DNA from: a virus
Lineage: Duplodnaviria; Heunggongvirae; Uroviricota; Caudoviricetes
IMG/VR virus record: IMGVR_UViG_2645727555_000005
Coordinates: 1 to 19,035 of that record
Direction: 5' to 3' (one strand)
DNA: 19,035 nt
Shown: one piece after another, positions 1,938-19,035 of the stretch
Layout of the letters: each line of letters opens with the position of its first letter
How positions within the stretch are numbered: the first letter of the stretch is position 1
The notes under the pieces: model-generated
The model's input: the letters and a program-made list of their open reading frames with translations, nothing else
Told to the model about the DNA's origin: nothing
The model's database searches: none
Translations under genes and position numbers: made by a program

Positions 1938-1941
1938 ATTA

Positions 1942-2139: not shown

Positions 2140-2142
2140 AAA

Positions 2143-2948: not shown

Positions 2949-2954
2949 GTCAAA

Positions 2955-3605: not shown

Positions 3606-3619
3606 AGCCTTTCCTCTGC

Positions 3620-4928: not shown

Positions 4929-5001
4929 AGCACCCTCCTAAATAGGCGAGGGTACTTTACAGCAAAGGCGTTAATCTAAAAAGATGTGTTAGAAATTTAA
5001 T

Positions 5002-6030
5002 TTAAGAATCCATCAGGCGGCTATTAGCCCCCACAGACACGCCGCCACGGCGAAGATACCGCATAAGTGTTTCCGGTTTCTTCCAGGTTCCTTCCTGCAT
5101 GATCTCCACCATAGACACCTGCTTTTCAGCCATATCAATAGCGGCCCCGACGCGTGCACTATGCCCGGTCCACGTCCGGTATCTTCCTTTGTTTGGCGTA
5201 GCATCTCTTTTATTCAGCAACACCCAGGCGTCGCTGAATATTTTCTCCATTGCAGGTGCAGTAAGGGGCGTTGTCGTGAGCCTGGCCTTATTGCTACGGT
5301 GTATCGGCGGGAACAGCACTGCGTCAGGATGTTCGCGAAGCCCGGAAACATCCAGCCAGTCATTCAGCACAGCGGTAGTGCGACGGGAAAGCACCTTATC
5401 AAGCCCGGCGGCGGTCGTTATTGTCTTCGTGTGTGAAATATGTAGCGTGACAGTGTCACCTGTTTGGTCCAGATCTCCTACACGAATACGCGATATTTCC
5501 GACATACGCATCAGCGTATTGTATGCAACAAAGAGAAAAGCCCGGTTGCGCAGGTCCACCAGCCGTTCTGACCTGGACAGCAGGACGTCGAGCAGTTTCA
5601 GATCGTCCCACCGCAGCGGTATAGCCTGGCCTGTTCGTTCGCCTTTTTCAGTTGCCGCTTCGCGCCGGATGCGCCGCATAGCCAGAGAAACACTTTTATC
5701 ATCCGAAAGTGGTGGAAGGCCACAATGCGAAAGCAGCATGTTCAGCATGGCGTAGTGCTTATCAATGGTGGTCGAAGCCAGATCGGCATCATGCAGCTGA
5801 AGAAAATACTCGCGGGCCATTTCTGGTGAGATCGGAAACCAGGCAAGCTGGCGAGCGTGACACCAGCGCGCCCAGGAATGAAACACCAACCGGAGGTCGC
5901 GCAGAGTATTCGGCGCATAAGCCCCCTGGTCATTCATGAACCGCATAAAGTTTTCTGCGGCTTCCTGGTACTCTTTGCCAATGTTGCGCAGAAAACCACC
6001 GGAACTGCCAGAGATAATTAATTCACTCAT
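5002..6030 (-). CDS. dre: Cre-family tyrosine site-specific recombinase (Dre-like)
   Basis: 342 aa, collinear with P1 Cre. Catalytic positions conserved: Arg in AYNTLMRMSEISRIRVGD (Cre R173 region), H-x-x-R (GHSARVGAA), Trp (EGTW), Tyr nucleophile (MRYLRRG). Arm-binding regions diverge from Cre, consistent with altered site specificity. Confidence 0.92.
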   Translation of the reverse strand: MSELIISGSSGGFLRNIGKEYQEAAENFMRFMNDQGAYAPNTLRDLRLVFHSWARWCHARQLAWFPISPEMAREYFLQLHDADLASTTIDKHYAMLNMLLSHCGLPPLSDDKSVSLAMRRIRREAATEKGERTGQAIPLRWDDLKLLDVLLSRSERLVDLRNRAFLFVAYNTLMRMSEISRIRVGDLDQTGDTVTLHISHTKTITTAAGLDKVLSRRTTAVLNDWLDVSGLREHPDAVLFPPIHRSNKARLTTTPLTAPAMEKIFSDAWVLLNKRDATPNKGRYRTWTGHSARVGAAIDMAEKQVSMVEIMQEGTWKKPETLMRYLRRGGVSVGANSRLMDS

Positions 6031-6182
6031 GAAACTATTTCACCTCTATATACAGATGACGCTACGCGAAAAATATAAAAATGACAGGGTAGCTATAAGT
6101 TAATTTTCAAAATACAAGCCTTTGATTCGAGGCACGTATTTTCAGTGATGTCAACACTGTTCATCTACACATGATTATAGCC

Positions 6183-6214
6183 TAACTTTAAATAATGCCA
6201 ATTATTTAAAGTTA
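6183..6214. other. rox: rox-type recombination target site
   Basis: TAACTTTAAATAAT-GCCA-ATTATTTAAAGTTA: two perfect 14-bp inverted arms around an asymmetric 4-bp spacer. Outer arm bases resemble loxP (ATAACTT...AAGTTAT). Lies 152 bp upstream of the recombinase start. Matches the 32-bp rox site of Dre as I recall it. Confidence 0.85.
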
Positions 6215-6370
6215 TAAAATGGCGATTTTTTTTAATCCATCACAGATTGATTCTGACCAGTAACACGTTGCCTTCATGGTCTTTAATTTGCGAAGTGTGG
6301 TTTATACAGTTGGTTTTCTAAAATTGATGACAAAAAATCACAGTTCGATCCTTTACTCACTCTGTTATTC

Positions 6371-6384
6371 GACATAAATTTGTC
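6371..6384. promoter_or_regulatory. dyad element GACA-N6-TGTC in promoter region of the 345-aa gene
   Basis: GACATAAATTTGTC with AAATTT core, 40 bp upstream of the ATG at 6425 and overlapping a TTGTCA -35-like hexamer. Operator candidate only. Confidence 0.3.
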
Positions 6385-6424
6385 ATAGTAATTTTATGTT
6401 AGAAAACTAAATCGAGTAGGAATA

Positions 6425-7462
6425 ATGAGTAAGAAGTCGATCGAGAAAGAGTACAAACGGTTCCTGCAAACCGCTGAACGGTGGAAAGAGCTGGTGGTCG
6501 CAAACTCTGTTTTCCATGATACCAGTTATGCTGGCGAGGAATTCCGCCATGTTGCATTAACGCATGACCAAAACATATTAGAAGAAGCTGAAAAATGTCT
6601 TGCTGAATGGAAAGCCTTCGTTGACATGTGTCGCGATGCCGACGGCAAAGCGTCGAACATTGTTGAGTCTGTATATTCTCCGATCCCATTCATCATTGAG
6701 GACACCAATCAAAGCACGCATGTTGTTGTGCAAAGCGCTACAACAACACGTACATTTACACGTGAACAATTGCTCAAAAAATACGACAAAATCATAAAGA
6801 AAAGCCTGAAAAATAGGGTTTTTTCTCAAATCGTAGGTGCTCTTGAAGAAGAACAGCGCTTCTTTGAAGCTGAGCCTGAAGGCGAGATCTACCGGGCGCG
6901 TAAAGAGGCATATACAGATGTTGTGCTGACAACAAACATCGAAGGCAGCAATGCCCTTTCTCGCTTTAGAGTTGGCGCACATGGCGCATTGGTTTTCGCA
7001 AGACTACCGAAGACAACGATCCCCGTTGTCAATAATGTTGGTGAACGCCGGAGCATTACAATTTATTCTGGCGTCGAATCGGTACCTTGCAGCCTTCTCG
7101 GCGATTTTAACTTATATCGTGTTCGTGACCTGGAAAAACACCAGCCAAGCTACGTTGCGAAGTCGTACATCTTAAGGAACATCGATATTCGCAATGAAAG
7201 CCTTAAGCAGAAATCCGCTAAGATGCTGGAGGATGCCGATCCGGCTATTCGCCATATCATTGAGCGTAAGATACGTACATCACGTGAAGCAATGGCAAGG
7301 CTGGATAAAATGGATCTGGAATTGTTAGACGTAATGATGGCCTCTGGAGACGACCTGACCGGCATTAAACTAAATGAAGCTCGTAAAAAATACGGCAAAG
7401 CAATCGAAGAACGTTACGGATACACATTCCCCCAAACGCAGTACGCCGCGAAGCTCTGGTAA
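6425..7462 (+). CDS. hypothetical protein (345 aa) in the immunity-region slot
   Basis: ATG with AGGA RBS 6 nt upstream; own promoter region and own terminator. Lys/Asn/Ile-rich, lower GC than neighbours. No HTH or catalytic motif recognised. Convergent with pacB, divergent from dre across rox, which is the P1 c1 position by synteny. Confidence 0.8.
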   Translation: MSKKSIEKEYKRFLQTAERWKELVVANSVFHDTSYAGEEFRHVALTHDQNILEEAEKCLAEWKAFVDMCRDADGKASNIVESVYSPIPFIIEDTNQSTHVVVQSATTTRTFTREQLLKKYDKIIKKSLKNRVFSQIVGALEEEQRFFEAEPEGEIYRARKEAYTDVVLTTNIEGSNALSRFRVGAHGALVFARLPKTTIPVVNNVGERRSITIYSGVESVPCSLLGDFNLYRVRDLEKHQPSYVAKSYILRNIDIRNESLKQKSAKMLEDADPAIRHIIERKIRTSREAMARLDKMDLELLDVMMASGDDLTGIKLNEARKKYGKAIEERYGYTFPQTQYAAKLW

Positions 7463-7471
7463 TCACAACTG

Positions 7472-7497
7472 GCCCCGCATCGCGGGGCTTTATATAT
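7472..7497 (+). terminator. intrinsic terminator after the 345-aa gene
   Basis: GCCCCGC (7472-7478) / GCGGGGC (7482-7488) stem with 3-nt loop, followed by TTTATATAT. Overlaps the pacB stop codon on the opposite strand. Confidence 0.6.
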
Positions 7498-8998
7498 CCA
7501 GATCTGGCATTTCGATATCCGCCAGAACCTGATCTCGGAAAGTTGCCATTTCGGCACCAATATCTTCATTAGCAGGCACATAGTCCACCAGCATAGTGAA
7601 GCAGTAGGTATCCCATCGGTCAGGCGATTTGATGTTTAGCTTTTGCCGCATGTGCTCTTTGCGCATCATCGCCATTTTCCCTTCCTCATTCAGTAAAAAG
7701 GGGATTTTTGACGCTTGCTCTGCCGTTTTAGGGTCACTGTCTATCCGCATACGCCCTGACTTTATGGCATCACGCGCCATAATATTTGCGTAGGCACGCT
7801 GATTAACAAATCGCTCCCTGTCTTTGTTCGCAAACATGGGTTTTCCCCACCGAATACGTACCGGGTTCGCACCACGACGCACCAACTGCGCACACGCATC
7901 AGAACCAAAACCATCGGCATCAACCGCGATTGTTATATTCGGGTATTTTTCCGGCGTACATTCGTTATATATGAAGTCAGCAAAGGCCAATGGGTCCATA
8001 GTGCCAGGCATCTCCATTACCTTAAAGTTAACAACGCGCCGCTTATCCCTGTGACCAGATACCTTGCAGATGTTGAGGACCGACTTATCTCGCCCATTAC
8101 CAACGTCAGCCGTTGCCACCCATCCCCAGTTTTTCTCCAACAACACCTTGCGGCGAGCTGCGCGATCGCATTCATCACGACCAAGCAAATAGCCGTTAAT
8201 TTCTCGTGGGAACTGACCAAGCACCTTGACCATGTACTCAATAGAATCGCGCCCGCCATATTCCAGAAGCTTCTGCTTGATGAATTGTGGTGTGACGAAC
8301 GGTGATTCTTCCGAGTTAAGAACAATTGCTGTCCAGATCCCTTTCGGGTTGTCTGGGGTTTTTGCTTGAGAATGGTGCGAATCGTAGAAATAACCACTTG
8401 GCCTTGTTGGCTGGGATAGCATCAACATCCGGTTATCTTCTTCAGTAAGAGCACCGGTCATTACGCCGATCGCCTTATCAGATATACCAGATGCTTCATC
8501 CAGAATTAGAAGCAAATGTGCCGCATGTTCCCCCGCCAGCGCTTCTTCGTTGCCGAGTCGATAACCTTTGCAGAGAACTTCCCAAATCCCCTTACGGGAG
8601 CGCTCATAAAACATGGTGTCAGAGAGGACAAAATAGGTCTGCAACCACCCATGACGCTTAACTGCATTCGCCCAATACTGTTTAACGTATTTGAATACGC
8701 CTGTTTTTACCTGGCCTATCTTGTTAGCAACAATGATGACACGGGCATCGGGGAACAGGATCATAAAAATCAACAGCAACATCGCGGTAAGGGACGACTT
8801 CCCCGTTCCGTGTCCGGACGTGACGGTCGTCCTACTCCCCGTTTCCTGCACTGACTGAATGATCTGCTGCTGCTGGTGGGAGGGGAACATCCCAAAAATA
8901 TCGACAACAGCCTGGGTAAAGTTGTAGCGGTATTTGATTACCATATCGCGCCAGCGTGGATCGCTGGTGACGCATTTAATCTTGCGCCCGCCAGCCAT
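7490..8998 (-). CDS. pacB: terminase large subunit (PacB-like)
   Basis: 502 aa with Walker A GHGTGKS near the N-terminus and an acidic nuclease-type C-terminal half. Start overlaps pacA stop by 1 nt. P1-type order lpa-pacA-pacB. Confidence 0.9.
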   Translation of the reverse strand: MAGGRKIKCVTSDPRWRDMVIKYRYNFTQAVVDIFGMFPSHQQQQIIQSVQETGSRTTVTSGHGTGKSSLTAMLLLIFMILFPDARVIIVANKIGQVKTGVFKYVKQYWANAVKRHGWLQTYFVLSDTMFYERSRKGIWEVLCKGYRLGNEEALAGEHAAHLLLILDEASGISDKAIGVMTGALTEEDNRMLMLSQPTRPSGYFYDSHHSQAKTPDNPKGIWTAIVLNSEESPFVTPQFIKQKLLEYGGRDSIEYMVKVLGQFPREINGYLLGRDECDRAARRKVLLEKNWGWVATADVGNGRDKSVLNICKVSGHRDKRRVVNFKVMEMPGTMDPLAFADFIYNECTPEKYPNITIAVDADGFGSDACAQLVRRGANPVRIRWGKPMFANKDRERFVNQRAYANIMARDAIKSGRMRIDSDPKTAEQASKIPFLLNEEGKMAMMRKEHMRQKLNIKSPDRWDTYCFTMLVDYVPANEDIGAEMATFRDQVLADIEMPDLDI

Positions 8999-10362
8999 TA
9001 ATCATCCTCCGGCGGTTCTATCGCGATATCATCATCTCCGGCGTCATACCCTGCATCAGATGCATCATAATCACCGTAAATTTCAGCCGTTGCCGAAGGG
9101 TCAATATCCAGCTCTTCGTCGTTGGCCTCGAATTCTCCAGCTTTACGCTCGCCATTGCGGTCGTAATCTCCGCACCCCAATTCTTCAACAATGGTTGCCA
9201 CATCCGCCCGGCGCTCTGCCAGCCATTGCGGATGGTTAGCCTGAAGCGTTGCAAACTCCCTTGCCTCTTTGTCCAGCTGTTCATCATCAACATCATTGAC
9301 GTCAGAAACAGGTGGTTCGAGAAGAGTGATAGCTTTCGCCGCGCGCGCCGCGAGGATAGCCGGGACGCTGACCCCCTGGCGCTCGATGTATTCAGCAACA
9401 CCGATATCATCCAGTTCCTCGCGCTCACGCATACGTATAGCGGCGGCGATAACTCTGGCAGCGCGTGCGTCAGCGCCAATGCGATATTCAATCTCTTTGC
9501 CACGCTGTTCGGCCTGTAGGCGTGCTAATTCGAGTTTTTCTCTGGCCTCAGCCTCTTTGAATGCTTGCTGGCGAGCGCTCTGACGAAGCTTTTCATCCCC
9601 CTGTCGCAGCTTTTGTTCGGACTGATATATAGCTGCCAACCTACTGATAAAATCATTCATGTAGTAGGCCGCGTCACTGATTAGACCGAGAAGGCGCTGC
9701 CCAGGGTGCATTCCTTCTGGCTCTTTATCGCCCAAGGCGTCTATTTCCGCCTGTAGACGTTCGGCCTCCTGATCAACAATGCTTTGATACTGAAGTGCGC
9801 GCTCTTGCGCCATTTGAATTGCTAACCGCAGGTGTTCTTCTGCGCCGTTCTTCATCATATCGCGAGCCACATTCGTAGTGGGCAATGTGGCACGCTGCAC
9901 AGCACCGCCAGGGATCATTGCTGAAGATCCCTCAATTTTTGGGGCGCTTTTATCTTCTTCGGGGATCATTTTCGCCATTTTTTCGCGCAATGGTCTCCTG
10001 ACAGATTCTTTTATCTCATTGTTATTATTTGCATTATTTTCATGATCCGAAGTTTTCTTTCTCGGCATACTTCGGAAAGAACCTGCGCCCTGCGAATTGT
10101 CAATTTCTGTAAATTTTGTTTTTTCTGCACCCTCTTCCAGCTTTTTTGTTGCTCTTCCCGCCCGTTTTTTTTCAGGTGATTTGGTGCTTTTTTTTGTTGT
10201 CTTTACCTGCGACCGCACCTCATTTTTTTTCATATTGAGATGCTTTCTGGCTGTATTGAAGCTAAGGCCATGCTCCTCACAGTATTCCTTTACAGTGATC
10301 CCTTTTTCTTCACGCAACGCTATAAAGCGGGCGCGGTGCTCCTCCCAATTAACCAGACTCAT
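8998..10362 (-). CDS. pacA: terminase small / pac-recognition subunit (PacA-like)
   Basis: 454 aa. N-terminal HTH-like segment (WEEHRARFIALREEKGITVKEYCEEHGLSFNTARKHL) resembling the P1 PacA N-terminus; Lys-rich linker; central coiled coil; acidic C-terminus. ATGA overlap with lpa. Confidence 0.8.
   Translation of the reverse strand: MSLVNWEEHRARFIALREEKGITVKEYCEEHGLSFNTARKHLNMKKNEVRSQVKTTKKSTKSPEKKRAGRATKKLEEGAEKTKFTEIDNSQGAGSFRSMPRKKTSDHENNANNNNEIKESVRRPLREKMAKMIPEEDKSAPKIEGSSAMIPGGAVQRATLPTTNVARDMMKNGAEEHLRLAIQMAQERALQYQSIVDQEAERLQAEIDALGDKEPEGMHPGQRLLGLISDAAYYMNDFISRLAAIYQSEQKLRQGDEKLRQSARQQAFKEAEAREKLELARLQAEQRGKEIEYRIGADARAARVIAAAIRMREREELDDIGVAEYIERQGVSVPAILAARAAKAITLLEPPVSDVNDVDDEQLDKEAREFATLQANHPQWLAERRADVATIVEELGCGDYDRNGERKAGEFEANDEELDIDPSATAEIYGDYDASDAGYDAGDDDIAIEPPEDD
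9900..10050. other. candidate pac cleavage region (GATC hexamer cluster inside pacA)
   Basis: TGATCC-type hexamers on opposite strands at 9913-9916, 9964-9967 and 10044-10047, plus GATC at 9926, TGATCA at 9770 and TGATCC at 10297, flanking an A/T-rich core (10000-10040). P1 pac is a cluster of Dam-methylatable TGATCA/G hexamers inside pacA. Confidence 0.3.
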
Positions 10363-10751
10363 AAAGCAACACCACGCTTTTTAACGGCGGCATTCCACAG
10401 CTTATTCGCCATGTCCACCAGCTCTCGTTGCTCTTTTCGCGCCTGTTCGACTGATTTCCTGCTACAGTTTTTAACCAGTAAGCTACCGTATTCAGGCGTG
10501 CGCCCGCGCACCTTGAACTGATATCCGTTCAGACCATGTAGCCAGTATTTTCGTGGATACACACGATCATCCAGCTCACAGATTGCCCTGCTTGAACGAA
10601 CAAAATGACGAATGATGTTAGTTACACTTACTCGTGAAACATGGAGATGAGGGTATTTTTCTTTGGCGAGAGTGGTAATTTCAGTGACTGTCAGATAGCA
10701 GTCAGCCCTGATCATGATATCCGCAATTTCTGCGCTGCTGATTTGTTCCAT
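10359..10751 (-). CDS. lpa: late-promoter-activator-like protein (Lpa position)
   Basis: 130-aa ORF immediately upstream of and overlapping pacA, as lpa is in P1. TATAAT-containing promoter region upstream. Assignment is by synteny only. Confidence 0.5.
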   Translation of the reverse strand: MEQISSAEIADIMIRADCYLTVTEITTLAKEKYPHLHVSRVSVTNIIRHFVRSSRAICELDDRVYPRKYWLHGLNGYQFKVRGRTPEYGSLLVKNCSRKSVEQARKEQRELVDMANKLWNAAVKKRGVAL

Positions 10752-10859
10752 TAATCCCCCGGGCAGGAAATGACCGAGGGGATGATAATGAGAATGTTAA
10801 AACTGTATAGACTGGTAAAAAGATGATTATATTAGAAAATTAATATTAAATACCTAACA

Positions 10860-11252
10860 CTACCAGCGAGACAAACGAACAACATGTTTCACTTTTGCGA
10901 TCCACTTTCCGCGATAACTATTGATTACGGCCTGTGCCAGCTTCAAATTGGCTTCAAAATCAGCCTTACTACCATCAGACTCCACCAGCATTCCTCCATC
11001 TATTTCTGGTAAACATAGATAATCCTGCTCAACCTGCAGCGGCATTGATGGCTCTCTGAATGGCGTTACTTGCTCTGCTTTCCAGCGAAATCTAACCCTC
11101 ATCCCCCTGGTGGTCATTACTAGATAGCCTGTTATAGTGCTTTTATGGCCCACATCAGTACGCGTGGCATTGCATGACACGATCTTACAGTTAGCGATAG
11201 ACCACTCCATATTGGTGGCCTGTTGAGTGCTTAATTTGGTAGTCCCGTACAT
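10860..11252 (-). CDS. hypothetical protein (130 aa)
   Basis: ORF whose start overlaps the stop of the upstream DUF2829-like gene by 1 nt; no motif recognised. Confidence 0.55.
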   Translation of the reverse strand: MYGTTKLSTQQATNMEWSIANCKIVSCNATRTDVGHKSTITGYLVMTTRGMRVRFRWKAEQVTPFREPSMPLQVEQDYLCLPEIDGGMLVESDGSKADFEANLKLAQAVINSYRGKWIAKVKHVVRLSRW

Positions 11253-11827
11253 CAGAAAGCCTCCCAGTCAGTCGCGATAATATCCACACCAGTTGCAAAC
11301 CAGTCTGTCTGCGCCTGTAAATCCCCATTCATCATTACCAAGCGAGGCATCACCATCACATCGCACCCTTCCACAATATCGAATGCCTCTTCCGGTAAGA
11401 ATTCGAAGAGCTTTTCTTTGCTGCCAATGCTGCCACGGAACATCGATATATAGCTCCCTTTAGGCCATGATGTCCGCCGGGCATCAAGCCCTTTCATCAT
11501 CCAGTAAAAAGCCGAGGAAAAAGGGATATTCTTTTTGCCAATGATTACATTATTCGCTTCTGTGTACTTCAGGAACTTAACTAACCTTACCATTGACTCG
11601 GATAACGCAACGTATGGCTCATGATTGATTGCTGACACGCTTACACCGTGCAATCCAACGCTTACCACTGTCATATCGCCGCTCTGTGCGGTTTCGATAT
11701 TGACGCCTTTGCGAACTAATGAGGCGTAAAGTTCCTCTCGCTTTTGGGTCCAGCGTTCCCGCTTCCCTATGAAGTCACTCAAAATGAGATCTTCTTCTGC
11801 ATGTGCGTTATCGTTCGCCATTAACAT
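11252..11827 (-). CDS. hypothetical protein with C-terminal DUF2829-like domain
   Basis: 191 aa. C-terminal FSSAFYWMMKGLDARRTSWPKGSYI...DIIATDWEAF fits the same DUF2829 pattern as the 216-aa protein at 2955-3605. Near-palindrome CATCTCTCGG...CCGATAGAGATG at 11861-11890 just upstream. Confidence 0.65.
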   Translation of the reverse strand: MLMANDNAHAEEDLILSDFIGKRERWTQKREELYASLVRKGVNIETAQSGDMTVVSVGLHGVSVSAINHEPYVALSESMVRLVKFLKYTEANNVIIGKKNIPFSSAFYWMMKGLDARRTSWPKGSYISMFRGSIGSKEKLFEFLPEEAFDIVEGCDVMVMPRLVMMNGDLQAQTDWFATGVDIIATDWEAF

Positions 11828-12282
11828 AACGTCTCCTTTTTACACGCGCGACCATCTCTCGGTTAAACCGATAGAGATGTCGAAACTTCGTATTAATTAA
11901 GGGTTACAGCCTGAGCGGCTATATGATGAATTGAAAGGAGTTGTGGCGGTGGTGCCTCCACCTGCCAGGTCAGCCACGCCCGGCGACGACACTTATCAGA
12001 ACCTCAATGAATGAAAATGGCTTCGTCACGAGCGCATAGCCGCAATTACCACAACGGAAACGGCGCTCGCGTTAATTAAACGCCTTTTCCTGTTGTGCGC
12101 CGTACTCTTCCGGCTGTCACACCGAATCGCCAGGATGGTGAGTCCTCGGTCCGACGATATGAACGGGGCTTGCACATTCCGGCTACCTGGTTTGTTGCCT
12201 GAGCTAGGGGCAAGGTTCCCCCCTTTTAACGTCACCAGACCGCTAACGACGCATGTGCCAGACGCCGTGTTACAACCAAATG

Positions 12283-12358
12283 TGGTGGCCCCTACCGGAC
12301 TTGAACCGGTGACCGTGCGATTATGAGTCGCCAGCTCTAACCACTGAGCTAAAGGGCC
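12283..12358 (-). tRNA. tRNA with CAT anticodon, most like tRNA-Ile2 (lysidine, AUA decoder); elongator Met not excluded
   Basis: 76 nt incl. encoded CCA: GGCCCTT TA GCTC AGTGGTTA GAGC T GGCGA CTCATAA TCGCA CGGTC ACCGG TTCAAGT CCGGT AGGGGCC A CCA. G1-C72 pair, so not initiator. Closely resembles E. coli ileX as recalled. Confidence 0.85.
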
Positions 12359-12495
12359 AGATTACTGTTAATTCCGCTTACGCTTTTTGCCAGAACCGCG
12401 TAAGGCTTTTGCCGCTTGCTCGACCCCATATGCAACCACCAGCAAAAATAAAAATGTCCAACCAGGGTTCTTATCGGCAAACGCCCAAAAATTCA

Positions 12496-12819
12496 TCACT
12501 TACAGCCACCTTGCATTTCCTTGGATAATTCATTGATTTTAGTGCTCAATAAGTAATCAAAATAAAGATAAAACACAAAAGTAACGATAGTGCTTAAAGT
12601 GTCTGAAATTGCGTATTTCAGCTCAGGAAGCATGACAAAGCAGACAAATAGCGGAAGAAATAACTGCACTATGCACAGGCTCTTCTTCCACAACCATCTA
12701 TATCTGAAGTCTGACAACAAAAACTCCATTGCTTGAAACTTTATTAGATTGCGGTGCCTGGTGCCTCCAGGTGACGTTAACCAGTTAACAATTAACGTCG
12801 GGATGTTTGACTTAACCAC
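12496..12819 (-). CDS. possible small hydrophobic membrane protein (start uncertain, GTG 12819 or ATG 12729)
   Basis: Track ORF; the portion from the internal Met (MEFLLSDF...) is strongly hydrophobic. No convincing RBS. Located between tRNA genes. Confidence 0.3.
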   Translation of the reverse strand: MVKSNIPTLIVNWLTSPGGTRHRNLIKFQAMEFLLSDFRYRWLWKKSLCIVQLFLPLFVCFVMLPELKYAISDTLSTIVTFVFYLYFDYLLSTKINELSKEMQGGCK

Positions 12820-12979
12820 TAAGGAGGATTGTTTTAACTGTTCCGCGTGCGCTTAGCCGCATTCACCGCAATGGTAAGAGCACTTGGCTGGCTGGGCGGC
12901 GATGACGCCTGTACGCATTTGGTGATCCGGTTCTGCTTCCGGCATTCGCTTAATTAGCCAAATACTCTTAACGTTGCGA

Positions 12980-13066
12980 TGGCGGAGAGTAATGGAATCG
13001 AACCATCATCGCTTGCGCAATGGGACGGTTTTCAAGACCGCTTGAGCACCATGCTCCCTACTCTCC
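12980..13066 (-). tRNA. type-II (long variable arm) tRNA-like gene, anticodon TGA (Ser)
   Basis: 87 nt incl. CCA. 7-bp acceptor GGAGAGT/ACTCTCC, anticodon arm GCGGT CTTGAAA ACCGT, T-arm GATGG TTCGATT CCATT, discriminator G. D-arm is atypical (GAGC/GCTC stem, 5-nt loop, 3-nt linker), so needs a tRNA scan. Confidence 0.55.
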
Positions 13067-13261
13067 AGTGATTGTGGTGGTCGGTGCTGATCTCCGACAC
13101 AGGGTTGTAGCAAGCCCCGCAAAGCGCGCACTACTGTAGTTGCGGCACATCAGCCTGTGCATTCACCACAATGTTGAGAACACTGGTTGTCACGCGGCAA
13201 CGCAACATTTATTCATAGATTGGGATATGACCCCGTTACGCCAATGTTCTCAATATTATGT

Positions 13262-13337
13262 TGGTGCCGGTTAACGGACTTGAACCGCTGGCCATTCGCT
13301 TACAAAGCGACTGCTCTACCAACTGAGCTAAACCGGC
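13262..13337 (-). tRNA. tRNA-Thr (anticodon TGT)
   Basis: 76 nt incl. CCA: GCCGGTT TA GCTC AGTTGGTA GAGC A GTCGC TTTGTAA GCGAA TGGCC AGCGG TTCAAGT CCGTT AACCGGC A CCA. Canonical cloverleaf. Confidence 0.9.
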
Positions 13338-13341
13338 AATT

Positions 13342-13428
13342 TGGTGGGGAGTGATGGAGTCGAACCACCCGAGTCGCAATGACAGTAGATTTACAGTCTA
13401 CCCCGCTACCCCTACGGACTAACTCCCC
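13342..13428 (-). tRNA. type-II tRNA-Tyr (anticodon GTA)
   Basis: 87 nt incl. CCA. Acceptor GGGGAGT/ACTCCCC, anticodon arm GTAGA CTGTAAA TCTAC (same loop as E. coli tRNA-Tyr), long variable arm, T-arm GGTGG TTCGACT CCATC. D-arm spacing off by 1 nt from canonical. Confidence 0.75.
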
Positions 13429-13433
13429 TAAAT

Positions 13434-13510
13434 TGGCGATGGTGGGCGGATTCGAACCACCGACCGACAGCTTAGAAGGCTGCTGCTCTATCCTACTGAG
13501 CTACACCATC
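13434..13510 (-). tRNA. tRNA-Arg (anticodon TCT, AGA decoder)
   Basis: 77 nt incl. CCA: GATGGTG TA GCTC AGTAGGATA GAGC A GCAGC CTTCTAA GCTGT CGGTC GGTGG TTCGAAT CCGCC CACCATC G CCA. Canonical cloverleaf. Confidence 0.85.
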
Positions 13511-13964
13511 ACTTGCCGGGTACGTCTCCGGCGAGGGCTTCCACCTCCGTATGCTTTTCGGCGCACCGCGCCCTGGCTGCAATTCGGTAACAGGGGATGC
13601 ACAACCCTGGCTTCCAGCGTGATTAGCGCCTTCAGCATGACGGGATATACCCGTTACAAGACATTATCCCAGAAAGCCATTAACCAATGGCTGTTACGCG
13701 GGAGGGACGTAACAGGTAAGGGCGCTGACCAGAAAGACCTGACCCTTCTCATTCATCTGGTTAATCACACCAGCGCCCTTGCCTGTTATGCCTCCCCGTT
13801 CCCTAATACACAGACGGGGACACTCTGCGGTCGATTTTTTGACGGGGGACGACTCATACCCCGTGGCGTCTGGCTTCTTAGGCCGCTACCATCATCAGAT
13901 CATCGTTTGCATTTACTTTAATGGTCGGTTTCTAAACCGCCGCAAAGTCGCTAACCATGACGAA

Positions 13965-13994
13965 AACCCTAAAAAAGCCCACCCGAAGATGGGC
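13965..13994 (-). terminator. candidate intrinsic terminator inside the ORF-free segment (minus-strand sense)
   Basis: On the minus strand, hairpin GCCCA-TCTTCGGG-TGGGC followed by TTTTTTAGGGTTTTCG. Short 5-bp stem, so moderate confidence. Confidence 0.4.
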
Positions 13995-14013
13995 AAATAC
14001 GCTACATCTCACA

Positions 14014-14092
14014 CAAGAAAGAAGCCGACTGCCTGAGCTGGATTCACTTTCAAATGCCCGCTGAAAGGGATCACAAGTCGGCTTCTTTCTTG
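14014..14092. repeat. 17-bp perfect inverted repeat flanking a 45-bp spacer
   Basis: CAAGAAAGAAGCCGACT (14014-14030) and its exact reverse complement AGTCGGCTTCTTTCTTG (14076-14092). Confidence 0.85.
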
Positions 14093-14308
14093 ATGCGGCA
14101 CTCTCTCCGCCCGTCACCGCTCTGTCTCGGTTGTCGCGTTTGCCACGCCAGCCGTAACGAGGTTTAAAGTCTTTGCACGTTTCCATCACTCGACTGCCGT
14201 CTGTGGCTGTTCGTTGCAGCGGGGGTGCCTCCCCCTGGGGATATCCCCGGCCTTACCCCATTCTTTCAAGACACAATGCAAGGCCACATCCGCATAGGTG
14301 CATTACTG

Positions 14309-14373
14309 CAACATTAAGGAGACTCAGGGCAAAAGGTAACCGCCACAAAAATCCCTATGCCTCCTTAATGTTG
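14309..14373. repeat. 13-bp perfect inverted repeat flanking a 39-bp spacer
   Basis: CAACATTAAGGAG (14309-14321) and CTCCTTAATGTTG (14361-14373). Nearby GC palindromes GGGGGTGCCTCCCCC (14221-14235) and GGGGATATCCCC (14237-14248). Confidence 0.85.
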
Positions 14374-14684
14374 AAGATGTGCATTGATGATTAGATGCAG
14401 CATGTACCGTTACTCTCTGCCGGACCATCATCAATGAACACCTTAAAAAGACCTTCCGTGGCTCAACATGTATTGTCGTTTACTCCGCAAAGTGCTCTCT
14501 CTGAAACCACTTTCCGCACTAAACCTACTGAACTTTGGCCTGCACGGTGCCAAAGCGTGCTCTTGCGTTACTATACTTTTCTAACACTTTAATTTGTTAA
14601 ATGCTGGTGGGTGAACAATAACCAATAAGTGACTATCAAGCCCAGCAAGCGAAACGTGGGTACCGCCCACCAGCAAGGAAAATT

Positions 14685-15953
14685 CTATGTTAAGTTACCT
14701 TCACAATCAATACATTCGAATTGTGATTTTAGATTTCTAACACATTGTTTCCCGTAAAGATCTTCTACACCCCCATTCTTCTTATCCCATTCGTTCGCCC
14801 ATACCCGGCAAGCGTCAATGATTTCCTGACGACGATCTCCTTGCATGAACGGAATGCTTTCATGGAAACAGCTTGGAATGCAGGCCACACTGAATACAGT
14901 ATCAAACTCCGTCTGCTTGATTGCCTCCAGCGTCTCCGGACGCATTTTTAATTCATCGATTGGCGCATCCTTAGAGTCCATAATCCGGCGATATAAGCGC
15001 GGAAAATCCGTCTCCAGGTACGCCATAATTTTATCTGCGAGACATTCGTCTATGTCGGTATTCCAGTCCTTTTCGAAGCCCGGCAGGCGATAGTAAAGCG
15101 GCGTTCCCCATACCGATGGGATCACATCCATCGTTAACAGGCGATTGGTTCTGATTTGTTGATGGTAATTAGCCGTCAGCAGTGCTTCGCCACGCTGCCC
15201 AGTTTCCGCAACCAGGCCGTGCGGATACTCATGGATGTAGGCAATGGCATCCCTTCCGTCATACATAAGTGGAAATGTCTCTGGTCTTTGTCCCATGCCA
15301 CAAGCACGGTTCAGATCGTGACCAAGCTGTGAGCACTCTCGCTTTAATGTTTCGATAATGCTCTGCGCTGTAGCCAACTTTTTACGCAGTGTGACGCCTT
15401 CGCCTTGATAATCAATGCATTGCTGATTGAGCTTGGTTAAACGCTCTTTTAGTTCCCGGCGCTCTCTTTTCAGCGTGCGGTTATCCTTCTCCGCAACATC
15501 CAGCCGCTTTGTCAGGCTGGGCGGATAGTCTTTTTTGTAACGGTTCAAATCAGCTTCGGCAGATTTACGCAGTGTATTTGCCTGTTCAAGACGCGCTTCC
15601 AGATTGCCGATCTCATTACGCATATTCGCGGCAAATTGATTAACTGCATCGCCCAGGCTTTCAACTGTCGCTGATACGCCTGTGACTTGTGAAAAACGGA
15701 TCAAGCCATCATTAACGGCTTGTTGGTATTCCTCAAACTGATCCACCAGCTTATTGTAATCAACTGCCCCATCATCAAGCAGCTTGTTGATTTCCGCCAC
15801 CAGGTTATCTGTAGTGGCAATGACACTCTCGTGCAGTCGCTTTGACAGGTCATCACCCGGATTCCGTTTCTGTATAAGAGCGATTTGTGTGCGCAGCGTT
15901 TCAATTGCTGTCGAGATAATTTCCAGATTAGAAGTATCAGTGTGTTGACTCAT
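14685..15953 (-). CDS. hypothetical protein, N-terminal coiled coil plus C-terminal Cys-rich globular domain
   Basis: Track ORF 14685..15968 (GTG start); ATG at 15953 (MSQHTDT...) is more likely. About 200 aa of heptad-rich sequence, then a domain with clustered Cys/His (CIPSCFHE...CRVWANEW...CVRN...CIDCEGN). Own A/T-rich promoter region; terminators on both sides. Confidence 0.75.
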   Translation of the reverse strand: MSQHTDTSNLEIISTAIETLRTQIALIQKRNPGDDLSKRLHESVIATTDNLVAEINKLLDDGAVDYNKLVDQFEEYQQAVNDGLIRFSQVTGVSATVESLGDAVNQFAANMRNEIGNLEARLEQANTLRKSAEADLNRYKKDYPPSLTKRLDVAEKDNRTLKRERRELKERLTKLNQQCIDYQGEGVTLRKKLATAQSIIETLKRECSQLGHDLNRACGMGQRPETFPLMYDGRDAIAYIHEYPHGLVAETGQRGEALLTANYHQQIRTNRLLTMDVIPSVWGTPLYYRLPGFEKDWNTDIDECLADKIMAYLETDFPRLYRRIMDSKDAPIDELKMRPETLEAIKQTEFDTVFSVACIPSCFHESIPFMQGDRRQEIIDACRVWANEWDKKNGGVEDLYGKQCVRNLKSQFECIDCEGNLT

Positions 15954-16032
15954 TGCTGTTCCCGTCACTTTGTTAAATTAGTTTTCTAATATATTTTATT
16001 AGTTTGATGACGGTATCGGAAGATGCAATAAA

Positions 16033-16060
16033 CAAAAAACCCGCTAATTGGCGGGTTTTT
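16033..16060 (-). terminator. intrinsic terminator (bidirectional hairpin)
   Basis: AAAAAACCCGC TAATTG GCGGGTTTTT: 6-bp GC stem with A-run and T-run flanks, immediately downstream (minus sense) of the stop at 16059. Confidence 0.7.
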
Positions 16061-16385
16061 ATGCAATTACTGTGTTGCAGCCTGATAAATAAGATACGCG
16101 ATAAATACAGGTACGATGGCCCATTGCAGCAATGAAAGTAGCCTCATTCATTACTGTTATTGGGGTAACTCCATTCACGTATTGCTTCTCTGACATTTTC
16201 CCTAACCAACTAACCGACAACAGTGCCGAGTTTTCCCCCAATTCCAGCTCTCTGAGAGCTTCACGGATTAACGGCGCTGTCACAGCCTTAACCGGTGTGC
16301 TCAACGTGATACTCCGCGTCCTCCCCGCATCGTCAGCGAACGCCAGACTCACATAATATTTTTTGCTCAATGTACAAACTCCCAA
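16059..16385 (-). CDS. hypothetical protein (about 97-108 aa, start uncertain)
   Basis: Track ORF with TTG start at 16385, overlapping the upstream ORF by 19 nt; GTG at 16352 is an alternative start. Ends at the strong terminator. Confidence 0.45.
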   Translation of the reverse strand: MGVCTLSKKYYVSLAFADDAGRTRSITLSTPVKAVTAPLIREALRELELGENSALLSVSWLGKMSEKQYVNGVTPITVMNEATFIAAMGHRTCIYRVSYLSGCNTVIA

Positions 16386-16567
16386 TCATCAGCGCTTGCA
16401 CTTTCCGGGGTTATGTGAACCTTATCGCCAGTAACAATATTGCGAGCTTCAAAACTTCCATTGATACGTTTCGAGATCTCAATACATAGAGCCTGCTGCC
16501 ATGAGCGACGACGAGCGATAGCATTAGTTCCTGCAGGGATAAGTTCTGCCACGTTAAGTAAACGCAA
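16367..16567 (-). CDS. hypothetical small protein (66 aa)
   Basis: TTG start with GGAG 8 nt upstream, 14 nt after the VRR-NUC stop; no motif recognised. Confidence 0.4.
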   Translation of the reverse strand: MRLLNVAELIPAGTNAIARRRSWQQALCIEISKRINGSFEARNIVTGDKVHITPESASADDWEFVH

Positions 16568-16581
16568 AACGATTTCTCCGT

Positions 16582-17073
16582 TTAATCAAGACAAACATAT
16601 TCCGTGATAGCTTTTATGGCTTCAGCGGCACTGCGCGCCTCAAAGCAGTAGTAACCTGCTTCAGTGAGGCGAGTCATCCAGACGAGTTGTTCGGGAGTCA
16701 GGCGATTTCTCCCATGTTTCATCTCAATGCGCATTCCGTGGTATCCCCCGCAAGCAAGGTCTATAGAAAGATCGGGATATCCCTTCTTTTGGCCTTCTGC
16801 CACCATCTTTATTGCCGTCCTTATGCCTCGCAGACCGCCGTTTGGAGTGGCGTGAGTATGCTCATACACATAGCGCATATTGCGATACAACCAATCCAGG
16901 ACGCGAACCTGTTCGTAATGCTCATGGTTCCTTTTGATTAGATCTGGGTTTTTCTCCAGTTCTCTGAGAGCTGCGGCATGTGGGGATGTTTCAGAATATT
17001 CACTGCGACGCCTTCTTTTTCGCGCTATTTTTCTAACACACCCATTGATAGTAAATAAGCGAAATAATAACAA
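16582..17073 (-). CDS. VRR-NUC domain nuclease (PD-(D/E)xK superfamily)
   Basis: C-terminal ~100 aa fit the VRR-NUC pattern: EQVRVLDWL...HTPNGG...GYPDLSID...YHGMRIEMKHGRNRLTPEQLVWMTRLTEAGYYCFEARSAAEAIKAI. The only in-frame start is TTG at 17073, with no clear RBS. Confidence 0.7.
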   Translation of the reverse strand: MLLFRLFTINGCVRKIARKRRRRSEYSETSPHAAALRELEKNPDLIKRNHEHYEQVRVLDWLYRNMRYVYEHTHATPNGGLRGIRTAIKMVAEGQKKGYPDLSIDLACGGYHGMRIEMKHGRNRLTPEQLVWMTRLTEAGYYCFEARSAAEAIKAITEYVCLD

Positions 17074-17212
17074 CTACGTTAGATTTGTAAAACAAGAGAG
17101 ATACTACTCAAGGATGGGCTATATGCAACAGGTCGGATTTGCTTTTAGAGTAAAAAGTGACCTTAATCAACAAGGAGGGTAAATCGCATGGCATTTACCC
17201 AACTTGTTATTT

Positions 17213-17473
17213 TTAAAGGTTTATTTTATCCTGTTCGGATATTTCTGTGATTGTCTTGTCGATTGCGATCAACCACCCTTCATAGGTTAAATCATCAACA
17301 AGCTCTACCAGTTTGTCTTCTGTATGAGGGAAGTATACCCAGCTCCAGCTCGCTGGGTTTTCTGCTTTTCGCAGCGTAAAAACCTTCTTGTAACGGTGGA
17401 ACTCAAGGACATACCCCTTCGATATGGAATATTCCTTTAGGTCTTCGACCGTAAACCTACGATTCTTTCGCAT
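17213..17473 (-). CDS. hypothetical protein (86 aa)
   Basis: ATG start 2 nt after the upstream gene stop; no motif recognised. Confidence 0.5.
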   Translation of the reverse strand: MRKNRRFTVEDLKEYSISKGYVLEFHRYKKVFTLRKAENPASWSWVYFPHTEDKLVELVDDLTYEGWLIAIDKTITEISEQDKINL

Positions 17474-17475
17474 GG

Positions 17476-17910
17476 CTACCCCATGATTCGATATTTCTCT
17501 ATAGACTCGTCGTAACTTGTGTACACGTATGGCTCTGTATCATCAGCATAAGGTGCGACTTCCAGAGCATGAACGGGATTGTATACCGCGTCATTTTCCA
17601 GGCGATCGCTCGAATACAGATGCCCAGCCAAAACCGTAAGCGCCGGGCGACTCATTTTGTAGATCTCTGCCACATCACTATCTACAACTTGTCCAAATGA
17701 TATGTCGCCGCGCTCCAGCAATAACGTTTTAAGCGCAGGCCACCACGGCCCATAAAGGTGATAAAGCTGTGGATCTCGTTTCAGCCTTTCCACCATGCCA
17801 TTCAGATATGCATCCAGAAACGCCTCTTCACTCCTGCCATTGAGCGCCTGCGGCAAAATGTCCTCAAGGTAGGATTCCGTCGGTTTTACAGTGTCAATTA
17901 ATGTCGTCAT
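17476..17910 (-). CDS. hypothetical protein (144 aa)
   Basis: ATG start preceded by a GC hairpin and an upstream AAGGAG; acidic protein, no motif recognised. Confidence 0.6.
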   Translation of the reverse strand: MTTLIDTVKPTESYLEDILPQALNGRSEEAFLDAYLNGMVERLKRDPQLYHLYGPWWPALKTLLLERGDISFGQVVDSDVAEIYKMSRPALTVLAGHLYSSDRLENDAVYNPVHALEVAPYADDTEPYVYTSYDESIEKYRIMG

Positions 17911-17946
17911 TCAAATTCGGCCCCGGTTGGGGCCGCTCCTTATCTG

Positions 17947-18975
17947 TTAGGCCGCATCGGCGATTATTTTACGCAGTTCATCTACCGAGTAACGCGTAGA
18001 TACCATCCATGCAGGACGGTCAAAGTTCACATCAGCAACCGGGTTTGCTTCAAAATTCCAGAAACGCCCGCCAATCTTCTTAATCGCGTCTTTGGCGTTC
18101 CGTATTGTCGAGGAACCTGGTTGGTCGGCAATGAGATAAACCGCGCCAACGTCCTCGCTGACGCTCCACCAGCGCCCGCGAACACGCGCCTTAGCGCGAA
18201 TCGGCTTATCATTAACCACAATGATATAGTCATCATTCGCCGCTTCATCAGCTCTGGCTTCAGCCACTGCCGCCTGCTCTTCTCTTTTGCTTTCAGCCTG
18301 CTCAAGCCTTTCCGCGATCTCTGATTCAGTGGCCCCGCCGTTTTTCAGCGATACATAATCCTGCCACGTTGCCGATTTGAGCGTATCCGGCAACTCATTC
18401 ACATAGTCGCCGTCTTTCAACTCACGGGCGCGGCGGGTAGCCATTTCTACCAGGCGATTAACAGAAACAGCATCAGCAAAATCGTCCTTACTAATGTATT
18501 TTTCATCAAATGCATTGATGACAGCCCCCACCTTAATCCACTGTGCTGCCGGTGATTCCAGGGGGTTATCAGCCTGAACAATGGCGAGTTTCGCTCCATC
18601 TACCCCATTATTCGCCAGCTGTTCCAATGCCGCCCATCCATCTGCATCACTGAGTGATTTATATTGCTCAAACAATGCATCGCGCCAGGCCACCAGCGCA
18701 GAACGTGTTTTTTCGATCTTCGTCTTAATTTTCGCTATCTTGACCTGATTAAACATCCGTTCAATATCATCGATATTGCTAAAGGCTTTCATCCTGCCCT
18801 GGAATAAACGGTATGCCAGCACGGTCCTCCAGAATGATTCCAGACCTTCTCCGGACGGTTTGCGGAACAAGCTAAGAATATCTTCAGAAGTGACTTTATT
18901 AAGCGAACGACCTGACAGACCACGCCCAGCCATCCAGTTTTCCGAGTAGGCAGCCTGACGGCTGCGGCTTGTCAT
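17947..18975 (-). CDS. hypothetical protein (about 342 aa)
   Basis: Track ORF 17947..18984 starts with TTG; ATG at 18975 (MTSRS...) is preferred. Central Ala/Glu-rich helical region; no catalytic motif recognised. Confidence 0.65.
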   Translation of the reverse strand: MTSRSRQAAYSENWMAGRGLSGRSLNKVTSEDILSLFRKPSGEGLESFWRTVLAYRLFQGRMKAFSNIDDIERMFNQVKIAKIKTKIEKTRSALVAWRDALFEQYKSLSDADGWAALEQLANNGVDGAKLAIVQADNPLESPAAQWIKVGAVINAFDEKYISKDDFADAVSVNRLVEMATRRARELKDGDYVNELPDTLKSATWQDYVSLKNGGATESEIAERLEQAESKREEQAAVAEARADEAANDDYIIVVNDKPIRAKARVRGRWWSVSEDVGAVYLIADQPGSSTIRNAKDAIKKIGGRFWNFEANPVADVNFDRPAWMVSTRYSVDELRKIIADAA

Positions 18976-19035
18976 GGTCTGCAATTACCGTTATAAAAAC
19001 AGGCAATGTCATTGTCTTTCAGGTGGTTATATGGC

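Follow-up and report, generated by a model that had tools for sequence, protein, structure and literature searches.

A conserved tmRNA-like RNA without a tRNA-like domain upstream of the tRNA array of a D6-like plasmid prophage and in other enterobacterial phages

What is encoded by a 1.2-kb segment that lies next to the tRNA genes of a plasmid prophage and holds no credible open reading frame (ORF)? The segment in question spans positions 13511-14684 of a 19,035-nucleotide (nt) stretch of viral DNA, hereafter the window (IMG/VR record IMGVR_UViG_2645727555_000005, positions 1 to 19,035). It is 99% identical to the corresponding part of Escherichia phage D6, and likewise to that of about 100 E. 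coli and Salmonella plasmids of roughly 90 kb each; the window represents a plasmid prophage of P1 type that resembles phage D6. On one side the segment is bounded by an array of tRNA genes, of which tRNA-Arg(UCU) (13434-13510) comes first, and on the other by a pmgS-like ORF (14685-15968). All five tRNA genes in the window are on the minus strand, and hence the segment precedes the array with respect to transcription, as a preliminary description made from the sequence alone had proposed. That description treated the 1.2 kb as a single object, but we observed that it consists of two modules of different origin, and that the tRNA-proximal one contains a reading frame of the kind found in transfer-messenger RNA (tmRNA), which had been overlooked. 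The core of this proximal module is apparently an undescribed RNA common to hundreds of very different enterobacterial phages. For the segment as a whole we favor, with confidence a little better than even, a repressor-controlled leader of the tRNA operon that combines a D6-specific module 1 with a module 2 that is a tmRNA-derived tag-template RNA devoid of the tRNA-like domain.

The lead to this interpretation was a weak match to tmRNA_permuted, covering the tag frame, in a permissive Rfam scan. A search of phage genomes with a copy of the element from a lambdoid prophage recovered homologues of the core from 858 phage records belonging to many genera, including Akira, 46-kb Klebsiella phages, 72-kb phages, Kuttervirus, Felixounavirus, phages of Erwinia and Pantoea, and P1; none of these records annotates it. 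A hidden Markov model built without any P1/D6-type member gave a single match in the window, on the minus strand at 13976-13765 (E = 5e-36), and this together with the homologues delimits the conserved core (13765-13976). In phages the core is usually found inside or beside tRNA arrays. Thus, in Shigella phage Sf15 (Ounavirinae, the Felix O1 subfamily) the element fills the 248-nt gap from tRNA-Ile to tRNA-Arg(UCU) and has its own promoter (TTGACA-17-TAAGAT), that of Akira likewise has its own promoter and adjoins tRNA-Met, and that of FEC14 lies within the tRNA region. A sensitive genome search of E. coli chromosomes detected the same 100 nt in lambdoid prophages between the genes for the Q antiterminator and the holin, directly after a promoter-terminator pair and with the tags ANDDLMLMAA and ANDDVVLMAA. 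When one genome per species was scanned, the element was found in Escherichia, Erwinia, Pantoea, Rosenbergiella, Rouxiella and Pseudocitrobacter; a few matches lay outside this order, of which the one identified proved to be a genuine permuted tmRNA.

The features that define the family are all present in the window, namely the GUUUUCG 5' motif, a conserved block preceding the tag, a 10-codon frame of the form AND...A, and two pseudoknots, a followed by b. The 5' motif GUUUUCGUC lies at 13967-13959, within the slightly longer stretch GGGUUUUCGUC at 13969-13959. The tag-like frame (13910-13878, minus strand) reads GCA AAC GAU GAU CUG AUG AUG GUA GCG GCC UAA, which specifies ANDDLMMVAA followed by a stop codon. 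It has neither a start codon nor a Shine-Dalgarno sequence, and is preceded by UAAAU, in other members by this or a close variant, as at the resume sites of two-piece tmRNAs; the segment UAAAUGCAAACGAU at 13915-13902 spans this junction. To examine the conservation of the frame, viral contigs and the loci already collected were searched with a sequence pattern, and all 128 hits had 10 codons followed by a stop. As this pattern contained the first three codons, the retrieval was repeated with an anchor located solely in the pseudoknot region, whereupon 91 of the 92 hits showed the same 11-codon frame (10 codons and the stop). The 17 nucleotide variants in this frame-independent set encode only 9 peptides. 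Third positions vary in 9 of the 10 codons, as against 5 of 10 for first and second positions, and pairwise synonymous to non-synonymous codon differences amount to 264:443 in the tag frame, compared with 39:764 and 82:719 in the other two frames. For instance, changes of GCA to GCU and of AAC to AAU (as in GCU AAU GAU) preserve Ala-Asn-Asp. The length of an overlapping frame beginning with AUG, worked out by hand, varies from 5 to 9 codons. The tag frame is therefore constrained at the amino-acid level, with substitutions biased to synonymous ones, and its conservation as a peptide favors its being read as a template.

Downstream of the stop codon the RNA forms two H-type pseudoknots. In the window, pseudoknot a (13864-13830) comprises stem 1, pairing 13864-13859 with 13847-13842, and stem 2, pairing 13853-13850 with 13833-13830; pseudoknot b (13828-13793) comprises stem 1, pairing 13828-13824 with 13814-13810, and stem 2, pairing 13820-13815 with 13798-13793. 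RNAalifold recovered two nested stems with compensatory changes. Base pairs were further counted in a 42-sequence MAFFT alignment for the four pseudoknot stems and a helix preceding the tag: 89% of the cells were paired, versus at most 54% if the partners were slid by 1-3 columns, double changes were seen in 92 cells versus 24 in shuffles, and the covariation score was reached by none of 500 shuffles. This alignment shifts the P1/D6 subtype by one column in pseudoknot a; the pairs of the window were hence verified by hand, and all four stems can form in its sequence. The pseudoknots accordingly covary across the family. For the region preceding the tag we propose a fold read from the sequence, in which no counterpart of the upstream pseudoknot PK1 could be confirmed.

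Which class of tmRNA does this RNA resemble? Its best Rfam matches are to tmRNA_permuted (RF04321; 24.1 bits, E = 0.014 in the window and 26.3 bits in the lambdoid locus L004), along with beta_tmRNA, and several specific features are shared with the two-piece tmRNAs of beta-proteobacteria (RF01850, RF04321). These include the resume context UAAAU-GCA-AAC-GAU (the window contains a match to UAAAUGC(A/C)AACGAU), a 10-residue tag that starts with AND and ends with AA or VA, and the counterpart of the D-loop analogue, GGUUUCGAC in the beta type and GUUUUCGUC in the phages, preceded by CCAG in many members. Furthermore, among viral contigs with the same 14-mer at the resume codon there are genuine permuted tmRNAs of the beta type, with ...CCAGGUUUCGAC...UAAAUGCAAACGAU... 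and with tags (ANDNAFLMAA, ANDERFLMAA, ANDNVWALAA) close to those of the phages. Their coding piece has the arrangement GGGGGUG-ACCAG-GUUUCGAC...UAAAUGCAAACGAU, to which ...CCAG-UUUUCGUC...UAAAUGCAAACGAU corresponds in the phage elements. The counterpart in P1 and D6 is GGGUGGGC-UUUUUUAG-GGUUUUCGUC, where GGGUGGGC is the 3' arm of a terminator-like hairpin that directly abuts the core (13994-13971; GCCCAUC-UUCG-GGGUGGGC followed by six U residues) and is conserved in P1. In the permuted gene this position is occupied by the 3' strand of the acceptor stem, an intervening loop and the 5' strand, and the hairpin may be a relic of these three elements. Taken together, these comparisons suggest that the 5' motif is a D-loop analogue and that the family descended from a two-piece tmRNA. 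The motif had at first been mapped to the P2 3' strand of alpha-type tmRNA, before the D-loop analogue of the beta type was preferred; either assignment is a reading of sequence likeness. Recent descent from enterobacterial ssrA was discarded, the two having only short words in common. Complete genes for beta-type permuted tmRNA, scoring above the Rfam thresholds, were also seen in the IMG/VR contigs L104, L045, L122, L042, L009, L071, L101, L033, L053 and L075.

The phage RNA differs from the beta-type molecules in being carried by phages of Enterobacterales, whose hosts have a one-piece tmRNA of their own, and in the two H-type pseudoknots after the tag, where the Rfam beta_tmRNA consensus marks only nested hairpins. 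The most striking difference is that it lacks the T arm, the CCA end, the separate acceptor piece and the G3:U70 pair. Between the tag and tRNA-Arg of the window, searches with a T-arm pattern and for acceptor complements recovered no T arm, CCA end or acceptor complement. Upstream of the core the acceptor piece of a permuted gene is absent, the only structure there being the GCCCAUC-UUCG-GGGUGGGC hairpin, which has no T loop; with no acceptor stem, the window also has no G3:U70 alanine identity pair. About half of the relatives examined lack a tRNA-like domain within 520 nt, and at E up to 0.5 neither a tRNA nor a tmRNA was detected in seven lambdoid loci. The start of transcription predicted for three phages that have their own promoter coincides with the G of GUUUUCG, which leaves no room for an acceptor strand. 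ARAGORN at default settings reported no tmRNA in the window; at an 80% threshold it called a permuted tmRNA with this tag, which we set aside since spurious calls were made as well. One-piece tmRNA (RF00023) had no match at E up to 10 in an Rfam search of 13400-14800.

In several phage groups the element is followed by unannotated tRNA-like RNAs (L004 3240-3375; L006 1745-1870; L153; L007 1710-1790; L257), which possess an acceptor stem and a T arm but have a large insert replacing the anticodon arm, and escape detection as tRNAs by ARAGORN. Some, such as those of L004 and L153, have a recognizable D arm, and some have an encoded ACCA or CCA end. The lambdoid example L153 reads UGUGGUG...CGCCACA-ACCA; L004 and the Akira-type loci have the same or a near-identical acceptor 3' strand and no encoded CCA. 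The Kuttervirus RNA ends in ...CUCCAAU-C-CCA, and that of L257 has the form GGGUGAU...GUCACUC-U-CCCA, the body of its domain being shared by L260, a contig that ends before the 3' end. Two further candidates were rejected: a 7-nt acceptor-like complement in L257 was ascribed to chance, as it is absent from its close relative L260, and the Akira element, which the intron mode of ARAGORN reads as a tRNA with the entire message as an 'intron', probably holds only a relic of one, given that its 5' acceptor strand falls inside the promoter spacer.

In comparison with E. coli ssrA (RF00023), the phage RNA has a similar tag (ANDDLMMVAA against ANDENYALAA), U-A at positions -5/-4 before the resume codon, and pseudoknots downstream. 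As in ssrA, the frame of the window lacks a start codon, runs from a GCA resume codon and terminates in a hydrophobic residue followed by Ala-Ala and a stop. It differs in having no tRNA-like domain and no significant similarity beyond short words, and has two pseudoknots after the tag, where E. coli tmRNA has three. Among natural derivatives of tmRNA that keep one functional half, the mycobacteriophage DS6A form is also phage-borne; in the available parts of two surveys, it is described as little more than a tRNA-like domain, a molecule of which kind inhibits tmRNA, and tmRNAs without a reading frame are reported from jakobid mitochondria and some plastids (PMC4131195; PMC11915505). These retain the tRNA-like half and have lost the message, the reverse of the phage core. 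The tmRNA has been treated as one molecule whose halves act together, and the natural half-molecules on record in those parts keep the tRNA half. Both surveys covered RefSeq viruses with tools that rely on the tRNA-like domain; in the portions accessible to us, the 2014 census names phage tmRNAs only in mycobacteriophages and Bacillus phage G (PMC4131195), and the 2025 census mentions among phages only the DS6A form reduced to the tRNA-like domain (PMC11915505). No message-only form of tmRNA was found in the literature searched. Nor did that literature, from which the P1 genome paper and subscription journals were outside the scope so that an earlier mention is possible, contain six of the tag peptides or a description of the element. 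No Rfam 15 family covers the core. In general character it may be likened to species 1 and 2 of the phage T4 tRNA cluster, which are small stable RNAs co-transcribed with and processed from the cluster and are not known to have a tag frame.

How could such an RNA be made and used? In the model that we favor, the segment would be an untranslated 5' leader of the tRNA operon, transcribed from the minus strand and probably controlled by a repressor, as the D6-lineage counterpart of the P1 ban leader. Module 1 (from about 14675 to 13971) would provide the promoter and some 700 nt of strongly folded, lineage-specific RNA, passing through hairpins at 14447-14371, 14383-14299 and 14092-14014 to the terminator-like hairpin at 13994-13971, which would limit read-through into module 2. 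Module 2 (13976 to 13511) would be a stable RNA, the first 210 nt of which represent the family core, that is, a permuted beta-type tmRNA minus its tRNA-like domain that retains the D-loop analogue, the resume-site context, the 10-codon degradation-tag frame and the two pseudoknots. Between the upstream promoter and module 2 no other promoter-like site was found, and transcription of module 2 would come from that promoter by read-through of the hairpin at 13994-13971. RNase P, by cutting in front of tRNA-Arg, would generate the 3' end of the RNA, and rescued ribosomes would read the frame as an alternative tag template in trans-translation. For this a tRNA-like partner would be needed in trans, either the odd tRNA-like RNAs of some phages or the host tmRNA-SmpB machinery.

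Several observations weigh against this model. All Rfam tmRNA matches of the core are below the gathering scores; in the window it attains 24.1 bits for RF04321, with a threshold of 47, and 11.8 bits for RF01850, with a threshold of 84, whereas genuine permuted tmRNAs score 124-153 and 88-149 bits, respectively. The Rfam search that had been suggested earlier thus returned sub-threshold tmRNA matches, and at gathering thresholds detected only the tRNAs. Because the window and about half of the relatives have no tRNA-like domain, the RNA would be unable to start trans-translation alone, and we know of no mechanism that loads a message-only RNA onto a stalled ribosome. Alanyl-tRNA synthetase requires the G3:U70 pair, and the candidate tRNA-like partners have U3-A70, G3-C70 or a G3/A70 mismatch in its place. 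In P1 and D6 the RNA comes directly after a terminator-like hairpin and lacks its own promoter, and so may be present in small amounts only. Furthermore, many members of the family are closely related and do not represent independent events, so that the counts given above partly reflect shared descent. Finally, the ends of the transcript, its processing and the strand transcribed in vivo are predicted from sequence, as is any action on ribosome rescue.

The boldest form of the proposal, that phages carry a message-only tmRNA, that host tmRNA-SmpB or the phage tRNA-like RNAs act as its partner in trans, and that rescued proteins receive a phage tag, appears to us rather improbable. Were it true, phage tags (...LMAA, ...MVAA, ...LAVA) would replace the ...ALAA of the host on rescued proteins, in a split trans-translation of new topology by which phages reprogram proteolytic quality control. 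More generally, a message-half RNA with a tag selected as a peptide would imply either that trans-translation accepts a separate template or that phages direct a tmRNA mimic at ribosome rescue. Model systems that contain the element include P1, relatives of Felix O1 and lambdoid phages, in which it is part of the late leader just past the Q gene. It is small and brings along its own reporter, the tag, so that the question can be addressed directly with standard genetics and mass spectrometry. In hundreds of genomes of phages and phage-plasmids it accounts for a long stretch left without annotation, and a new family model for the RNA would be warranted.

The main alternative is that the tmRNA-like RNA acts as a decoy or inhibitor instead of a template, binding S1, the SmpB tail at the resume site or RNase R, or absorbing nucleases that cut tmRNA, and so would modulate or protect ribosome rescue during infection. 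That many lineages are missing the tRNA-like domain while retaining the rest would suit a molecule that needs only to be bound. A mirror-image case is provided by the DS6A-type molecule, reported in the accessible parts of the sources to consist of little more than the tRNA-like domain and to inhibit tmRNA (PMC4131195; PMC11915505), and cleavage of tmRNA by a HigB toxin is noted in the part available of another report (PMC3912914). However, while this accounts for the lost tRNA-like half, it does not account for the codon pattern: a decoy selected as RNA fails to explain the synonymous-biased change, the fixed length of 10 codons and the retained stop. We consider it an unlikely explanation, though one to be taken seriously.

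A further possibility concerns the surroundings of the core. Beyond the pseudoknots, the window has a long hairpin (13797-13701; 27-nt arms, 81% complementary) that was recovered by repeat search, alignment and folding and whose homologues in lambdoid relatives are the hairpin modules of the form CACAACAGGUAAGAGCA...UGCUCUUAUCGUUGUG. It is followed by a 3' extension (13700-13511) that is specific to P1/D6-type phages, about 91% identical to P1, and reaches the 5' end of the tRNA. Within the latter, a small hairpin occurs at 13531-13516, and GGUGGAAGCCCU (13545-13534) can pair with AGGGUUUUCGUC (13970-13959) at the start of the RNA, an interaction present in the centroid fold and noted by inspection of the sequence, with no covariation. 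No terminator-like site was found between the core RNA and the tRNAs. The entire stretch 13511-13997 is common to P1, P7, SJ46 and relatives at about 91% identity. In P1 this direct homologue has the same position before the tRNAs, forming the leader of the ban operon between the C1-controlled promoter Pban (operator Op72) and tRNA-Asn, which is followed by tRNA-Thr; the D6 lineage differs in that the leader preceding this stretch, roughly 165 nt in P1, is replaced by an unrelated one of about 690 nt. The P1 record annotates here only a 'dicF-like region', which overlaps the terminator hairpin and extends over 18 nt at the start of the core; in the search of 13400-14800 with all Rfam families, DicF had no match at E up to 10.

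Accordingly, the segment could be only a processing or regulatory leader, with nuclease sites, stabilizers or an attenuator, in which the tmRNA-like part is an inactive relic on mobile tRNA modules. The element does travel with tRNA arrays and sit in leaders, in lambdoid phages it is bordered by long hairpin modules whose inserts vary, a terminator-like hairpin precedes the core, and the distal 700 nt are lineage-specific. Yet a relic would not retain a synonymous-biased 10-codon frame together with compensatory changes in four pseudoknot stems at about 72-80% identity, and several virulent phages supply the element with a strong promoter of its own. We regard this explanation as quite improbable. 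With regard to the flanking modules, the lambdoid late leaders (L004 2919-2988 and 3169-3248; L003 ~3160-3390 and 3478-3577; also L231) contain repeated long hairpins of the form CACAACAGGUAAGAGCAUU...GUGCUCUUAUCGUUGUGG, into which variable sequences of up to about 200 nt are inserted. A lambdoid prophage and the viral contig L231, whose element resembles that of Sf15, have one of these inserts, CCCUUAUGGGGCUUGGCUUAAAUGCA, in common. Copies located before and after the tmRNA-like domain might also base-pair and thereby close it. In one viral contig, L095, a Sib antitoxin RNA (RF00113, 98.6 bits; 1709-1862, minus strand) is encoded about 170 nt downstream of the element.

The 5' end of the RNA might alternatively be antisense to host tmRNA and block or redirect tagging, since UAGUUUUCGUC is the exact reverse complement of tag codons 3-6 of ssrA (GACGAAAACUA). 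The longest complement between the family and ssrA is indeed this 5' motif, 9-11 nt in length and always facing ssrA positions 96-106; it is UAGUUUUCGUC in lambdoid members and GGGUUUUCGUC in the window (13967-13959 versus 289-299 of the ssrA locus L239). However, matches of at least 11 nt arise in 1.1% of shuffles and those of at least 10 nt in 4.5%, the last bases of the motif vary (UC, UA, UG, UU, AC), the window allows only 9 Watson-Crick pairs and one G-U, and descent from the D-loop analogue of permuted tmRNA accounts for the motif as well. Whole-molecule duplex folding against E. coli ssrA yielded long-range duplexes no better than those of shuffles. The complementarity is probably due to chance or shared ancestry, and the antisense explanation very unlikely.

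We now turn to the distal module. The stretch 13995-14684 is confined to D6 and D6-like plasmids and never occurs on chromosomes; the relationship to P1 ends at 13997, and no Rfam match was found in it even in the permissive scan. The only promoter-like site in 12000-16200 is a sigma-70-like promoter on the minus strand (TTGATT-17 nt-TAGAAT, 14710-14682), which overlaps the stop-codon end of the pmgS-like ORF and has a predicted start at about 14675. Both hexamers are kept in four D6-like relatives. Just upstream of the -35 hexamer lies an operator-like motif, GTGTTAGAAA (14743-14734, minus strand), and a second copy, identified as a direct repeat and by motif counting, is located about 90 nt into the leader (14587-14578, minus strand). 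The motif RTGTTAGAAA occurs 5 times in the window, against an expectation of 0.07 (4986-4995 and 6396-6405 on the plus strand; 14578-14587, 14734-14743 and 17030-17039 on the minus strand), and at least four of the five copies are between larger ORFs. In the relatives L240 and L241 it forms an inverted repeat that abuts the -35 hexamer of the leader promoter. By analogy with the C1 operators of P1 (Op72/Pban), the motif may serve as an operator for the D6-type immunity repressor. The earlier suggestion of a binding or recombination locus thus fails for the bulk of the segment and survives for these repeats flanking the promoter at its far end.

The predicted leader is rich in hairpins. The first stem-loop (14675-14602) has a perfect 10-bp stem, UGCUGGUGGG/CCCACCAGCA (14675-14666 with 14611-14602), and encloses the hairpin 14670-14656; its arms are invariant in 5 relatives and its interior is variable, and it is found in both the minimum free energy (MFE) and the centroid fold. 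A hairpin with 21-nt arms that are 86% complementary (14447-14371), recovered by repeat search and in the MFE fold, is longer in L240 and L241 through an indel. The next (14383-14299) contains a perfect 13-bp repeat that had been noted at 14309-14373, and which is the core of a longer repeat of 31 nt (14299-14329 with 14353-14383; 77% complementary); the alignment shows compensatory changes in L240 and L241 (A-U to G-C, and GGG/CCC to GAG/CUC). Thereafter comes a block of about 210 nt (14310-14100), which includes GC palindromes (14221-14248) likewise seen before. It is almost identical among the D6-like plasmids, with flanks only about 80% identical, and was found in 99 of 5426 E. coli genomes, on plasmids only and never on chromosomes; such uniformity may result from a strong constraint or from an exchange that took place recently. 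The 17-nt perfect inverted repeat reported in the preliminary description (14014-14030 with 14076-14092, 45-nt spacer) was reproduced and forms a 17-bp hairpin (14092-14014) kept with changes in L240 and L241. Of the terminator-like hairpins it listed on the minus strand, that at 13994-13977 has 7 pairs and a T run, and that at 14670-14656 is weak, with 5 pairs.

The high content of structure remarked upon earlier is borne out by comparison with dinucleotide shuffles. The minus-strand RNA of 13511-13976 has an MFE of -178.5 kcal/mol, the shuffles averaging -159.0 (z = -3.46; none of 100 reached this value), and that of 13971-14676 has -266.9 versus -227.0 (z = -6.84; 0 of 20). The G+C fraction is raised as described, although only modestly (0.52-0.56 versus 0.41-0.50 in the flanks). 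In addition, the covarying pseudoknots and hairpins, the conservation across unrelated phages and the position at the tRNA array support the original suggestion of a structured non-coding RNA or processed leader co-transcribed with the tRNAs.

The absence of a credible ORF also held. The longest ORFs of the segment are of 85 amino acids (aa), apart from a plus-strand frame of 180 aa, which begins in antisense orientation within the tRNA region and is interrupted in P1 despite about 91% DNA identity; in L241 the fourth codon of the 85-aa frame on the minus strand is a stop, and a 37-codon AUG frame of the distal leader, among others, was rejected as it is not kept in L240. That the segment is a decayed protein gene, as had also been considered, or hides a small one is scarcely credible: although 65-85 aa ORFs exist and some database records annotate a 'hypothetical protein' over parts of it, none of seven candidate ORFs matched Pfam, relatives at 83-93% identity differ by 1-, 4- and 7-nt indels, and alignment to the related plasmids revealed interrupted frames with compensatory changes in the hairpins.

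Lastly, a tRNA scan of the window identified, in addition to tRNA-Arg(UCU), tRNA-Tyr (13342-13428), tRNA-Thr (13262-13337), tRNA-Ser (12980-13066) and tRNA-Met(CAU) (12283-12358). The tRNA adjoining the core RNA is Arg(UCU) in the window and Asn(GUU) in P1 and D6 (3925-4000 in both L001 and L002); the two forms have in common the acceptor 3' strand and end CACCAUC-G-CCA, and both are present among P1-type viral contigs. An adjacent tRNA-Arg(UCU) is also seen in Sf15, L231, L061, L298 and L300. The tRNA-Tyr of the window is absent from D6. In the GenBank record of D6 (MF356679, L002; 3295-4000) the tRNAs are annotated on the strand opposite to the ARAGORN calls, which is probably an annotation error. 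Given that the P1 counterpart of the tRNA-Met(CAU) gene is annotated as tRNA-Ile2 (ileX-like, with a CAT anticodon), the gene at 12283-12358 probably encodes a lysidine-dependent isoleucine tRNA.

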